DNA from: an uncultured archaeon
GTDB lineage: Archaea > Asgardarchaeota > Lokiarchaeia > Sigyniarchaeales > Promethearchaeaceae
Length of the DNA: 20,745 nt
Assembly: GCA_964426185.1 (NCBI GenBank)
Contig: CAYRPF010000063.1
Coordinates: 1 to 20,745, forward strand
Direction of reading: 5' to 3'
Shown one piece after another: positions 5,352 through 7,528 of this stretch (position 1 is its first letter; every line of letters begins with the position of its first letter). The translations under genes and the position numbers were made by a program. The notes below the pieces were generated by a model. The model had not been told where the DNA came from. It saw only the letters and a list, made by a program, of their open reading frames with translations, and did not search any database.

Positions 5352-6602
5352 ATGTTAAAATCAAAAAAAGCATTAAAAATAAATCATTTTTTAATTTTGT
5401 TGCTCTATTTTCTTAGTCCTGTCGTTGTATCAATTATATATTGGTTTGAAGAACCAGAGCCGTTAGTATTTACTGATAGTAATTTATTAATGATGAATCT
5501 GCTCCATAGAACGGGCAGTGTATTAGGAATTTTTGCGTTCATATGGATGTGTTTCAATATTTTTATTGCAATCAAATTACCTCTAATTGAAAAAAATTTT
5601 AGTTTAGATAAGATTATCAAATTTCACACTAATATGGCAACTCTTGCATTATTTCTTTCAATTATTCATTATCCTCTGTCTAGAATTAATAGAATAGTGC
5701 CAACTACCCTAATGAAAACAGGTACAATTGGATTTATGATTTTCTTAACATTGATGATATTAGCACTCATTTTTATGACCAACAGATTTATAAAAAGTAA
5801 TAGAATCATGTCTATTAGAGAATTCTCCTTTGAAAAAAACTTCAAATATAACTTCAATAAAACCTTGCATAATTTTACGCTGTTAGGTGTGAGTGTGATT
5901 TATATTCATGCTTTCATCTCAATTACTTCGAAAAGTTCAATGCTAATGCGCATTGTATATTCATTTTTTGTATTCATTACACTCTTTGGTTGGGTTTATT
6001 GCAAGATAATTCGAAAATTTCGCTCAATTTCGGATCCCTATGTTTATCGTAAGGCGTCTTGGGACATTATTAATCCAGAGATCATTCAGGAAAAAGATAA
6101 TAATTTGGCATCAAAATTAATCCAAAAAAATCCCTCACTATACCCTTGTTTGCAATGCGGTTCATGTACAGCTAATTGCATCATATCAGAGATTACAAAA
6201 GGAGAATTCAATCCTAGAGAGATAATAAATTCTTTGTTAGTCGGTTTAAGTGATAAAATAATAATCGATAAAGAACCGAATATCTGGGATTGTACAAACT
6301 GCTATTCTTGTGATGAAATTTGTCCGCAAGGTGTAAAATTATCCGATACTTTCAATTTCTTAAGAAATAGATCTGCAGAACAGAAAAAAGCTCCAGAAGA
6401 ATTTTTAAGTGAATTGGAAATGGTTTATAACTTTGGAGTATCAATTCCCCTTCAAAGTGGAATAAAAAAGAGACGAGAATTGCTTAATCTTCCACCACGT
6501 CCAGAAATTGACATTCAAGAGATTCAAGAAATGATGGAAATGTCTGATTTTAGGAAATTGTTTGAAAAATTGTGTGTGGAAATTAAAGAGGAGAACTTAT
6601 AG
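5352..6602 (+). CDS. hdrC: Fusion: N-terminal 6-TM ferric reductase/NOX-type di-heme b domain + C-terminal HdrC-like 2x[4Fe-4S] domain
   Basis: Six hydrophobic segments in aa ~13-217 with His pairs H92-X13-H106 and H173-X12-H186. C-terminal CLQCGSCTANC, FNPREII and IWDCTNCYSCDEICPQGV, plus the HdrC-like tail RRELLNLPP. Confidence 0.88.
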   Translation: MLKSKKALKINHFLILLLYFLSPVVVSIIYWFEEPEPLVFTDSNLLMMNLLHRTGSVLGIFAFIWMCFNIFIAIKLPLIEKNFSLDKIIKFHTNMATLALFLSIIHYPLSRINRIVPTTLMKTGTIGFMIFLTLMILALIFMTNRFIKSNRIMSIREFSFEKNFKYNFNKTLHNFTLLGVSVIYIHAFISITSKSSMLMRIVYSFFVFITLFGWVYCKIIRKFRSISDPYVYRKASWDIINPEIIQEKDNNLASKLIQKNPSLYPCLQCGSCTANCIISEITKGEFNPREIINSLLVGLSDKIIIDKEPNIWDCTNCYSCDEICPQGVKLSDTFNFLRNRSAEQKKAPEEFLSELEMVYNFGVSIPLQSGIKKRRELLNLPPRPEIDIQEIQEMMEMSDFRKLFEKLCVEIKEENL

Positions 6603-7528
6603 TGAAAATATCAAATAAACGAGTTAAATTATTTACAGGATGTGTTATCTCAAACCGTTTACCTTTTCTTGAAAAAAGTGCGCGTTTGGTATTCGAAAAA
6701 TTAGGTTTCCAATTAGAAGATATGCCATTTACATGTTGTCCTGATCCAGTAGGGGTTGCAGCAATATCTGAGAAAACTTGGTTAACTTTCGCAGCACGTA
6801 ATTTATGTTTAGGAGAAAAGGATAATACAGAGATTATGTCATTATGTAATGGTTGTACTGAGACCTTGTTAACGGCAAAGCAGAAATTGAAAAATGATAA
6901 AAGGAAGCTAGAAGAAACTAAAGAAATCCTAAAGAAGAAAGGTTATAAATATAACGGGAAAGCGAAAGTAAGCCATTTTGTAAAAGTACTCTTTGAAGAT
7001 GTTGGTGTAAAAAAAATAAAAAAAATTGTAGAAGATACTTGGGTTGGGGATAAAGAAAATTTTAATCCAATTAAAAATTTAAAAATTGCAACTCATCCTG
7101 GATGCCATTATAATCAACCATCTGAAATTCTTAAATGGGACAATCCAAACGATCCACAATACTTAGAAAAGTTAATAGAAGCAATTGGCGGTATTCCTTT
7201 AAAATATGAAGAGAAAACTCTTTGCTGTGGATCAGCAGTATGTAGAACAAAAAGGGATAGTGCATATGAAATTTCCAGAAGAAAATATCAAGGTGTGATG
7301 GATGTAAAAGCTCAACTCATTGCAGTTAATTGCCCGTCTTGTTTTCAGACACTTGAATCAAACCAGAGGAAAGTAAATAAAATATATGAAAAAAATTATA
7401 AGATTCCAATATTTTATATTACTGAGTTAATTGCTTTAGCTTTTGGGTATAACCTTGATGAATTAGGACTCAAATTCCATACAGTTGGTAAAGAAATGGA
7501 ATTCTTAAAGAGCTTGAATAAAAAATAG
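6602..7528 (+). CDS. hdrB: Heterodisulfide reductase subunit B (two CCG domains, non-cubane [4Fe-4S] ligands)
   Basis: FTGCVISNRLP..EKS, TCCPDP, TWLTFAARNL, LCNGC, HPGCHY, LCCGS, NCPSC, IPIFYITELIALAFG. The GTG start overlaps the upstream TAG by 1 nt; GAGGAG SD at 6588-6593. Confidence 0.93.
   Translation: MKISNKRVKLFTGCVISNRLPFLEKSARLVFEKLGFQLEDMPFTCCPDPVGVAAISEKTWLTFAARNLCLGEKDNTEIMSLCNGCTETLLTAKQKLKNDKRKLEETKEILKKKGYKYNGKAKVSHFVKVLFEDVGVKKIKKIVEDTWVGDKENFNPIKNLKIATHPGCHYNQPSEILKWDNPNDPQYLEKLIEAIGGIPLKYEEKTLCCGSAVCRTKRDSAYEISRRKYQGVMDVKAQLIAVNCPSCFQTLESNQRKVNKIYEKNYKIPIFYITELIALAFGYNLDELGLKFHTVGKEMEFLKSLNKK

Follow-up and report, generated by a model that had tools for sequence, protein, structure and literature searches.

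What electrons would pass, and in which direction, through a protein that joins a ferric-reductase-type (FRD) membrane domain to the heterodisulfide reductase subunit HdrC? A gene for such a fusion lies in a 20,745-nt stretch of lokiarchaeial DNA (the window), where an earlier note, made from the letters alone, had seen a NOX/ferric-reductase di-heme domain fused to HdrC and coupled to HdrB in an HdrA-less, membrane-bound complex. The di-heme FRD domain, the placement of HdrC, the HdrB partner and the Asgard host all stood up to analysis; the novelty attached to the lack of HdrA and the NOX label needed correcting, and a quinone-type carrier is poorly supported. The features that concern us are:

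5352..6026, + strand: FRD-type six-helix membrane domain (aa 1-225), from helices, topology, His invariance, phmmer and fold
6027..6101, + strand: conserved cytoplasmic linker (about aa 226-250), from family alignment and model
6102..6602, + strand: HdrC domain (about aa 251-416) with two [4Fe-4S] motifs and C-terminal HdrB-contact helices, from profile, fold and complex model
6602..7528, + strand: hdrB, 308 aa, overlapping the fusion by 1 nt; ten Cys and H169 in its two CCG domains
7551..8003, + strand: membrane protein of 150 aa with two helices and CxxC motifs, starting 22 nt after hdrB
9388..10152, - strand: polytopic membrane protein of 254 aa, with a distant homologue (23%, E 8e-8) in the heme-module cluster of genome G056
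10152..10889, - strand: 245-aa polytopic membrane protein, 48% identical to a gene in the same G056 cluster

The fusion ORF (5352-6602, + strand) encodes 416 aa. Six membrane helices (about 8-33, 43-73, 85-111, 118-142, 166-189 and 197-223, by hydropathy and an AlphaFold model), the spacings H92-X13-H106 and H173-X12-H186 among histidines at 12, 52, 92, 106, 173 and 186, and two CxxCxxCxxxC motifs (C266/269/272/276 and C314/317/320/324) are all present as the note had described them. The positive-inside charge pattern places the N terminus and HdrC on the cytoplasmic side, and by analogy with NOX2 (PMC3591440) H92/H173 are predicted to ligate a cytoplasmic heme and H106/H186 an outer one. In the linker, where AlphaFold confidence is lower, P229 and R233 are invariant and W237 and D238 nearly so. 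A promoter and terminator scan gave results at chance level.

An assembly artefact is ruled out. The identical protein with identical neighbours occurs in three other assemblies, homologues share the architecture, and a public vent metagenome contig covers 5633-6714 with zero differences, crossing both the FRD/HdrC junction (~6030-6090), which is in frame, and the HdrC/hdrB junction; that metagenome run may share its source with the window, and the assemblies and homologues weigh more. About 65 homologues were found, every named one from Asgard archaea, and 17 genomes, about 11% of the host's order, carry the fusion. Beyond the order, this query recovered no FRD-HdrC fusion from 246 other Asgard genomes and no recognisable one among 122 phmmer matches, which include one Asgard FRD-ferredoxin. 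Neither a triple FRD-HdrC-HdrB fusion among proteins of 729-2080 aa (weak evidence) nor, in a weak search, a longer fused form such as one with a dehydrogenase domain was found. All eight HdrC cysteines are kept across the homologues. The note's four histidines are conserved as well: although members are only about 40-50% identical, H92, H106, H173 and H186 are invariant in all 63 aligned full-length members, and the same positions are His in 80 of 80 relatives of the FRD-FAD-NAD type, so the pattern goes beyond chance.

The FRD assignment of the membrane domain was decided by sequence rather than by fold. By phmmer it matches FRD-FAD-NAD proteins (PF01794 plus FAD and NAD domains) at E 4e-15, with 24-32% identity and homology spanning the whole domain. 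PF01794 itself scores 23.4 bits against a gathering cut-off of 28 and matches 18 of 63 family members at E<=0.01 (best 5.7e-6); because a genome-wide PF01794 search missed the FRD-HdrC gene itself, family searches are insensitive here. PF02665, the NarI/HdrE-type cytochrome b, has no match in the protein at E<=1 and none in the host genome; a NarI/HdrE origin, lacking sequence support and opposed by positive homology to FRD, was set aside. Fold comparison returned Dcytb (Z 14.9), b561 (14.5), SpNOX (13.1; rmsd 4.3 over 176 aligned residues), STEAP4 (11.8) and NOX5 (11.3), and NarI is not among the 50 matches listed, which alone is not telling. In a membrane-domain tree the FRD-HdrC proteins form a single clade (100/100) whose sister group (99/93) includes an Asgard FRD-FAD-NAD protein, and the proteins nearest to them carry the annotation "predicted ferric reductase"; the domain descends from FRD-FAD-NAD reductases. 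NOX is too narrow a label: the extra TM3 histidine (NOX2 His119) is a NOX-specific signature (PMC3591440), whereas 19 genomic copies of the fusion have S, V, L, I or M at the equivalent position, 110, and HdrC, as the note had proposed, stands where NOX has its FAD- and NADPH-binding dehydrogenase domain.

The HdrC domain matches TIGR03290 at E 2e-25 (89 bits, equivalog cut-off 160) and 5odc_C at E 1.3e-30, and has both cubane motifs and the C-terminal HdrB-binding helices. The last base of the fusion's TAG stop (6600-6602) is also the first of the GTG start of hdrB (6602), whose product retains all ten CCG cysteines (14, 45, 46, 82, 85, 168, 208, 209, 244 and 247) and the GCH-motif histidine, H169. 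HdrB scores 240 bits with TIGR03288 (equivalog cut-off 345) and aligns with methanogen HdrB at E 5e-55, the ligands of both non-cubane clusters being present. It belongs to a 100/100 clade in which every member lies directly behind a fusion gene, and the HdrC and HdrB trees share the same two hdrB-linked groups. A complex model of FRD-HdrC with HdrB scored 0.85, against 0.00 for the best of three controls, which clears a threshold that 58 of 80 solved complexes attain, as do 2 of 110 mismatched pairs. Runs had 95% or more of their contacts in common, partner pLDDT was at least 86 and the predicted interface resembles that in HdrBC; because HdrBC is a textbook pair of solved structure, the predictor may have passed by reproducing what it was trained on. 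The intact, overlapping gene, its clade and the model favour the coupling to HdrB that had been proposed, although only 14 of the 28 loci whose context is known have hdrB beside the fusion.

The same gene pair has no hdrA or mvhD ORF in its operon or anywhere in the window, so "HdrA-less" holds locally; the host genome nevertheless encodes three hdrA elsewhere, together with four more hdrB/hdrC sets. These archaea also have Mvh clusters in which HdrCB stands without HdrA (10.1101/2025.02.26.640444). The absence of HdrA is therefore not the novelty.

Lokiarchaeia are described as syntrophic peptide fermenters whose electrons exit via soluble Mvh-Hdr and H2 (10.1101/2024.07.04.601786, 10.1101/2025.02.26.640444). 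In the host genome, which is 92% complete, a search for MenA/UbiA/MqnP-like and MqnA/D genes came up empty, which leaves a quinone-type version of the note's membrane carrier poorly supported. MCR alpha was likewise not found there, which makes CoM-S-S-CoB an unlikely substrate. Nor did the genome yield hemB, hemC or a FecCD/periplasmic heme-type uptake system; with neither synthesis gene found, the heme must presumably be scavenged.

In an inward reading, the complex would be a convergent HdrDE analogue: an outer-face or membrane donor would feed the hemes, and energy would be conserved as HdrB reduced a disulfide, taking the protons from the cytoplasm. The cofactor chain is that of HdrDE, QmoC and EMO, HdrB keeps every catalytic ligand, and low-potential FRD hemes would make the heme-to-disulfide step downhill. 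We nonetheless consider it rather unlikely, given that no quinone-synthesis gene was found, that none of the fusion loci read has a gene for an exported hydrogenase or formate dehydrogenase next to it, and that the hosts are fermenters with surplus electrons; in characterised FRD proteins, moreover, the donor is cytoplasmic and the electrons emerge at the outer face (PMC3591440, PMC11031084).

Genomes with the fusion tend to carry a heme O synthase/heme-copper-oxidase (HCO)-fold module, present in 14 of 17 carriers versus 8 of 137 non-carriers (counts uncorrected for kinship, and kin are not independent), in 10 of 11 versus 3 of 31 within genus g15, and in 3 of 5 versus 1 of 49 within g9. The module comprises a CuB-less HCO-fold protein and small His-rich membrane or exported proteins, and is physically linked to the fusion in G056, G227, L043, L056, L057 and the present window, which holds two of its genes, encoding the 245-aa and, by distant homology, the 254-aa protein; all 10 genomes with strong matches to the 245-aa protein carry the module. 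The 150-aa CxxC membrane protein is syntenic only in close relatives. Other fusion copies adjoin ccmABCEF, and a module or Ccm gene occurs in 16 of 17 carriers; the host genome itself has neither Ccm genes nor an exported partner bearing the GCH motif. The module can do without the fusion, since MK-D1 and seven other genomes have it alone, and the co-occurrence could simply mean that it supplies heme. Its HCO-fold protein is DSAG12_01126 in cultured MK-D1 and is encoded at C62:7192-8715 in genome G000. As a separate observation, the His positions in the C-terminal helices of an upstream GCH protein of ~300 aa align (MAFFT) with those of the module's small His-rich protein; an HMM of the first missed the second, and homology is not claimed.

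Could the FRD domain be a mere membrane anchor for HdrBC, usually free of heme? Such a role would suit the absence of hemC from most carriers (found in only 2 of 17) and the failure to recognise a heme uptake system, but it is very improbable in view of the four invariant histidines, the strong co-occurrence with heme-using genes and the full heme pathway cluster in one carrier.

Other neighbours raise further readings. In G056, G227, L043 and L057 the fusion is flanked by genes for a GlcD-like FAD enzyme and an Fe-S/CCG protein, joined in the last two by an acyl-CoA dehydrogenase. Such neighbours, and the fact that the non-cubane clusters of EMO/EtfD accept electrons from ETF (10.64898/2026.08.18.745454), would fit HdrB clusters that serve as a mere entry port for a flavoprotein, either ETF or the module's GlcD-like enzyme, without thiol chemistry. 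This is improbable: HdrB is complete, with ligands for both clusters, whereas EMOs vary the distal one; EMO has been reported only from organisms that make (methyl)menaquinone; and the neighbours of the fusion included no etf gene.

The window also contains a DtxR-like regulator and an ABC-3/ZnuA metal transporter, 5-8 kb from the fusion. Together with the ferric reductase annotation of the nearest relatives and the absence of NOX His119, they could point to an assimilatory cell-surface metal reductase that spends thiol electrons on Fe(III) or Cu(II) for uptake. At other loci, however, the transporter is not next to the fusion, whose recurring neighbours are heme and redox genes rather than metal importers, and anoxic sediments usually supply Fe(II), which makes this role quite improbable.

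Divergently upstream of the fusion lie gcvT/H/P1/P2, without an L gene, an arrangement that would let HdrB reoxidise the lipoyl arm of the H protein encoded head-to-head with it; lipoate-binding proteins do serve sulfur-oxidising Hdr-like systems. We discarded this coupling as barely credible, because the four closest relatives for which upstream sequence is available do not have gcv next to the fusion, and another contig of the genome encodes a dihydrolipoamide dehydrogenase above the TIGR01350 cut-off.

Set against known systems, FRD-HdrC shares with long-form prokaryotic FRD proteins, such as SpNOX (PDB 8qq7/8qt6; PMC11031084, PMC3591440), a six-helix domain with four heme histidines in TM3 and TM5 and a C-terminal, cytoplasmic electron-input domain, but HdrC replaces the FAD/NAD(P)H domain and the donor would be an HdrB-linked thiol. 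Domains fused to FRD in a survey were FAD/NADPH, FMN, Fer2, Rieske, DOMON, peroxidase, EF-hand and MFS, HdrC being none of them (PMC3591440). Like soluble methanogen HdrABC (PDB 5ODC, 7BKB, 8RVU), the pair has two cubane motifs in HdrC and both non-cubane ligand sets in HdrB; unlike it, the operon lacks HdrA, HdrC is tethered to the membrane and both proteins fall below the methanogen equivalog cut-offs. HdrDE of Methanosarcinales follows the same order of di-heme cytochrome b, two cubanes and two non-cubane clusters, but there the cytochrome is of the NarI/HdrE rather than the FRD type, the break between chains falls between cytochrome and HdrD rather than between HdrC and HdrB, cubane and CCG domains share one chain (HdrD) instead of occupying separate ORFs, and the probable direction is opposite, FRD-HdrC having no methanophenazine or quinone evidence.

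Two further precedents had escaped the note, which cited only HdrDE. QmoC of sulfate reducers (PMC3333476) also combines a di-heme cytochrome b and an HdrC-like domain in one chain; its cytochrome is HdrE-related and quinol-reduced, however, its partners are the HdrA-like QmoA/B instead of an hdrB neighbour, its domain order is reversed, and the QmoC model NF038018 matches only the Fe-S part of FRD-HdrC (aa 262-352; 45 bits, cut-off 300). EMO/EtfD (PDB 9OJN), an ETF:(methyl)menaquinone oxidoreductase with a documented membrane-potential-assisted uphill step (10.64898/2026.08.18.745454), likewise has a heme b membrane domain, two cubanes and a non-cubane domain, but is a single chain with an HdrE-like membrane domain, ETF as donor, a quinone acceptor and a variable distal cluster, whereas FRD-HdrC/HdrB is two chains in a host with no MenA/MqnP-like or MqnA/D gene found. 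Cytochrome-b/HdrC wirings of these kinds are known, whereas here HdrC sits on an FRD scaffold; the note's suspicion that this architecture is undescribed holds insofar as our literature search found no published description.

We favour, tentatively and at close to an even chance, a membrane-bound wire that runs outward from thiol through HdrB, HdrC and two hemes to an outer-face acceptor, with direction and acceptor proposed by inference. HdrB, whose ligands are in place, would oxidise a cytoplasmic thiol pair (not CoM/CoB in the methanogen sense) at its two non-cubane [4Fe-4S] clusters and, as homology to HdrBC structures and the modelled binding suggest, pass electrons to the two cubanes of HdrC. 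Sitting where ferric reductases have their FAD domain, HdrC would reduce the inner heme (H92/H173) and then the outer (H106/H186); the ligands are conserved, and heme binding at suitable distances is presumed. At the outer face a protein or small-molecule acceptor would take over without quinone, most plausibly the heme-module partners (the CuB-less HCO-fold protein and small His-rich proteins), in other lineages perhaps Ccm-matured exported heme proteins, or alternatively Fe(III), humics or O2; the heme would be scavenged.

Because electron export discharges the membrane potential, the outward wire would be an extra electron sink and not an energy-conserving step, serving to remove oxidants or to shed thiol-level electrons where no syntrophic partner takes them up. 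The potential of CoM-S-S-CoB is about -140 mV. NOX2 hemes lie lower, near -245 mV (PMC13296129), so the thiol-to-heme step would be uphill unless a lower-potential thiol or the membrane potential helps. Against the outward wire also stand the unexplained heme source, with hemB, hemC and an uptake system not found in the host and hemC rare among carriers, and the half of loci that have no adjacent hdrB.

The pair may also be the input arm of a quinone-free, undescribed membrane electron-transport chain in a subset of Lokiarchaeia, with thiol electrons passing through the FRD hemes to the CuB-less HCO-fold enzyme at the outer face. This is unlikely, but if true, that enzyme would be matured by its own heme O synthase with scavenged heme, and "obligate fermenters" would gain a terminal sink for O2, NO or another oxidant. 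FRD-HdrC adds to HdrDE, QmoC and EMO a further independent way of linking HdrBC-type clusters with a cytochrome b, here on a ferric-reductase/NOX scaffold, and with hdrB it offers a two-gene, expressible handle on which thiol the Asgard Hdr proteins turn over. Lokiarchaeia usually count as simple fermenters, but part of the group probably uses scavenged heme to carry electrons through the membrane.

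The membrane-bound fusion of a ferric-reductase domain (FRD) to HdrC lies on contig C63, all of which makes up the window, in a 3.26-Mb, 92%-complete host genome. ORF reading bore out the histidine pairs, the two Fe-S motifs and the overlapping hdrB with its full cysteine set described in an earlier note, and likewise its statement that neither hdrA nor mvhD is found within the 20,745-nt window.

The fusion operon
5352-6602, plus strand: FRD-HdrC fusion, 416 aa; His 92, 106, 173 and 186; two CxxCxxCxxxC motifs
6602-7528, plus strand: hdrB, 308 aa; GTG start overlapping the fusion stop by 1 nt; ten CCG cysteines; H169

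An identical fusion protein with the same neighbours is present in three other assemblies, and a public metagenome contig spans both the FRD/HdrC and HdrC/hdrB junctions with zero differences, ruling out an assembly artefact; the fusion is real and conserved. It has six membrane helices (hydropathy; AlphaFold model, pLDDT 81.7, pTM 0.76), and loop charges place both termini in the cytoplasm and the predicted heme ligands H92/H173 on the inner and H106/H186 on the outer side.

A phmmer search of 1.84 billion representatives with the membrane domain (aa 1-235) linked it to some 85 FAD/NAD-domain proteins (best E 4e-15), several annotated as "predicted ferric reductase"; PF01794 scored 23.4 bits, below its cut-off of 28. 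The four histidines, proposed earlier as the FRD ligand set, are unchanged in 63/63 aligned fusions and present in 80/80 FAD/NAD-domain relatives. In the membrane-domain tree (midpoint-rooted, the root serving drawing only), all fusions form a single clade (100/100), whose sister (99/93) comprises five sequences, among them two from Asgard archaea, an FRD-FAD-NAD protein and an FRD-ferredoxin. The top structural matches were Dcytb (Z 14.9), cytochrome b561 (Z 14.5) and SpNOX (Z 13.1), then STEAP4, NOX5, DUOX1 and NOX2; the choice of FRD over b561 rests on sequence, as the fold by itself cannot separate them. His119, a NOX-specific signature (PMC3591440), is missing, which rules out NOX identity, and sequence gives no support for a NarI/HdrE-type cytochrome. 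Given the FRD homology, sister clade, invariant histidines and lack of His119, the domain is best assigned as a long-form-type FRD with its dehydrogenase domain replaced, so that the ferric-reductase half of the original NOX/ferric-reductase claim holds but NOX proper does not. In G120, a genome of another Asgard family, an FRD joined to an ordinary 2x[4Fe-4S] ferredoxin (L035:1444-2349), in tandem with an FRD-FAD-NAD gene, shows the dehydrogenase domain replaced a second time.

The C-terminal domain matches methanogen HdrC (5odc_C, E 1.3e-30) and the hdrB product matches HdrB (8rvu_b, E 5e-55), both under the methanogen equivalog cut-offs; MCR was not found in the 92%-complete genome. Multimer modelling of the pair, a check suggested earlier, scored 0.85 against 0.00 for the best control, at a pass mark met by 58/80 solved complexes and 2/110 mismatched pairs; at least 95% of contacts agreed between runs, and partner pLDDT was at least 86. 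The modelled contacts fall almost entirely within the HdrC domain, and because HdrBC is already a solved pair, the model points to likeness to HdrBC, not binding. The window HdrB falls in a nine-member clade (100/100), every member of which lies behind a fusion gene, and four more fusion-linked HdrBs form a second group elsewhere in the tree. Three groups are seen among the fused HdrC domains, and two of them correspond to these HdrB groups. A single membrane-domain origin combined with several HdrC types suggests that HdrCB modules may have been swapped behind one FRD, or that fission may have come later.

All named homologues are from Asgard archaea, mainly Promethearchaeota/Lokiarchaeota, agreeing with the suspected Asgard host, and the sequence is best represented in hydrothermal vent metagenomes. 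DSAG12_01126 of Promethearchaeum syntrophicum (MK-D1) has an identical counterpart in G011, a genome from the host's family, making the host a Lokiarchaeia relative of MK-D1 in a different genus. The fusion occurs in 17/154 genomes of the order and was not found in 246 other Asgard genomes searched; MK-D1 lacks it. At 28 loci the downstream DNA could be read: hdrB follows immediately at 14 of them and does not at the other 14, so that the proposed coupling to HdrB is seen at half of these loci. The hdrB-less fusions retain the His, Cys and HdrB-contact residues, one of them closely preceding hdrC-hdrB-hdrA-mvhD. In genus g15, an hdrB-less fusion lies directly upstream of a proteasome/exosome superoperon (L006-L009, L014, L015, L023-L029). 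The host genome holds three hdrA genes and four additional hdrB/hdrC sets; "HdrA-less" is therefore true of the operon, but not of the cell. One set is an mvhG-hdrC-hdrB-mvhA cluster without hdrA, an arrangement noted for Asgard hydrogenase clusters (10.1101/2025.02.26.640444).

HdrDE, QmoC (PMC3333476) and EMO/EtfD (10.64898/2026.08.18.745454) likewise connect heme b with clusters of the HdrC and non-cubane types; the fusion differs from all three in its FRD-type cytochrome and chain boundaries and belongs to none of them. It is instead a member of the FRD superfamily, whose survey does not list HdrC among partner domains (PMC3591440). A literature search, with most subscription papers outside its reach, found no description of the architecture, in line with the earlier note; the fusion is apparently unpublished.

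Other genes of the window
1-681, minus strand: partial ORF cut by the contig end; oligopeptide-binding-like stretch, then thrombospondin-type-3-like D-rich repeats; no Pfam match at E 0.001
702-5241, minus strand: gcvT-gcvH-gcvP1-gcvP2 operon lacking an L gene, in divergent orientation to the fusion
7551-8003, plus strand: small CxxC membrane protein, convergent with the DUF1512 gene
8008-9141, minus strand: DUF1512 gene
11158-12705, minus strand: 515-aa membrane protein
12623-16163: DtxR-like regulator, ABC-3 permease, ATPase and divergent ZnuA-type binding protein

Coupling of the fusion to glycine cleavage, as the neighbouring gcv operon might invite, is highly improbable: a true lipoamide dehydrogenase is encoded on another contig (C5), and the adjacency is not conserved. 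Close relatives (L043, L055) keep the DUF1512/CxxC pair in synteny with the fusion; in the closest, the run extends into flavodiiron, ferredoxin:thioredoxin reductase-like, glutaredoxin and NADH oxidoreductase genes (L055:6012-8280), an oxidative-stress cluster. The 515-aa protein, with no family match and no homologue elsewhere in the host genome, appears to consist of a unit of two to three helices present in three copies. The ordinary Zn/Mn/Fe importer (12623-16163) is not syntenic with the fusion elsewhere.

Gene searches of the host genome did not support a heme pathway or a quinone as the membrane carrier proposed earlier. Neither hemB nor hemC was found, ahbD had no match above cut-off, and searches for uptake systems of the FecCD or PF01497 type recognised none; any heme would need to be scavenged. 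That the FRD is a heme-free anchor is very unlikely. MqnA/D was not found, and the three UbiA-family genes are heme O synthase-like, DPPR-synthase-like and one weak, unassigned match, leaving a quinone acceptor without genomic support. In only 2/58 genomes tested was hemC found, both fusion carriers, one with a full hem/ahb cluster. Across the order, 34/154 genomes carry PF01578 cytochrome c assembly genes; many Lokiarchaeia apparently use heme without being able to synthesise it.

The heme O synthase-like gene is never found without the gene for a 508-aa His-rich membrane protein, nor the latter without the former; 22/154 genomes have the two, including MK-D1 (DSAG12_01126), and in the host they lie on contigs C47 and C62.

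The heme O synthase/oxidase-fold module and related genes
C62:7192-8715 (locus L069), minus strand: 508-aa heme-copper-oxidase (HCO)-fold protein, unannotated, recognised by predicted structure
C47:2555-3460 (locus L017), minus strand: heme O synthase-like gene; TIGR01473 199 bits, cut-off 210
C62:3564-9357 (L069): co-oriented genes for exported His protein, HCO-fold protein, small His-rich membrane protein, GlcD-like FAD enzyme and Fe-S/CCG protein
Window 10152-10889: 245-aa gene
L003:5083-5997; L005:1117-2046, 5111-5992; L038:310-1422; L044:6056-6994; L112:7104-7994: ~300-370-aa xxCH protein

The 508-aa model (pLDDT 89.7) resembles heme-copper oxidase subunit I (cbb3 CcoN, Z 23.0, rmsd 3.7, 400 aligned; cNOR NorB, Z 22.0), with seven invariant histidines and no His-His pair in helix VII. 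At C47:34-4396 (L070) and L071:402-2045, the heme O synthase-like gene sits between a membrane gene that we read as prenol-kinase-like (no Pfam match) and an AA_kinase-family gene similar to isopentenyl phosphate kinase, which suggests prenol salvage for heme prenylation.

The module is found in 14/17 fusion carriers versus 8/137 non-carriers, and within two genera in 10/11 versus 3/31 and 3/5 versus 1/49, kin in these counts not being independent, so that P values overstate the association. In G227, another Asgard genome, seven co-oriented genes encode an exported protein, the HCO-fold protein, heme O synthase, a small His membrane protein, GlcD-like and Fe-S/CCG proteins and, last, the fusion; in G056 the fusion ends a similar cluster, and at three loci (L043, L056, L057) it stands head-to-head with one. 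The 245-aa gene is 48% identical to a G056 cluster gene, its strong matches confined to module genomes, and a 254-aa window gene is a distant homologue of that gene's neighbour. In a second context, a ~300-aa exported GCH-motif membrane protein lies upstream of the fusion, with ccmA/B/C/E/F or thioredoxin genes close by. The module or a Ccm gene is present in 16/17 carriers; the host has the module but no Ccm. The co-occurrence with the module may reflect direct electron hand-over or merely shared heme supply. The Asgard-specific xxCH protein (N-terminal motif, exported domain, C-terminal His-bearing helices), absent from the host genome, lies directly upstream of many fusions, close to ccm genes, and is possibly a single-cysteine c-type heme protein. 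In G219, a pair of exported Ig-like proteins with N-terminal CxxxH, 446 and 898 aa long, is encoded between the fusion operon and ccmF genes (L108:11713-15977).

The membrane-anchored, translationally coupled protein pair carries predicted ligands for non-cubane clusters, cubanes and hemes, two of each. We favour, at close to an even chance, an outward wire in which electrons would pass from thiol through HdrB, HdrC and the inner and outer hemes to an outer-face acceptor, because described FRD proteins run outward (PMC3591440, PMC11031084), the recurring partners would accept electrons on the outer side, neither a quinone nor an exported donor enzyme has come to light, and the host has electrons to spare. 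A point against is the potential of NOX2 hemes, near -245 mV (PMC13296129): the thiol-to-heme step may run uphill and require help from the membrane potential; such assistance is documented for EMO (10.64898/2026.08.18.745454). Inward, HdrDE-like flow is rather unlikely, EMO-like electron entry from a flavoprotein is doubtful, and assimilatory metal reduction is quite unlikely. If the outward wire holds and its thiol-to-heme step is uphill, electron export would spend energy rather than conserve it; there is a modest chance that a subset of Lokiarchaeia pass thiol electrons along a quinone-free chain ending at an oxidase-fold enzyme.
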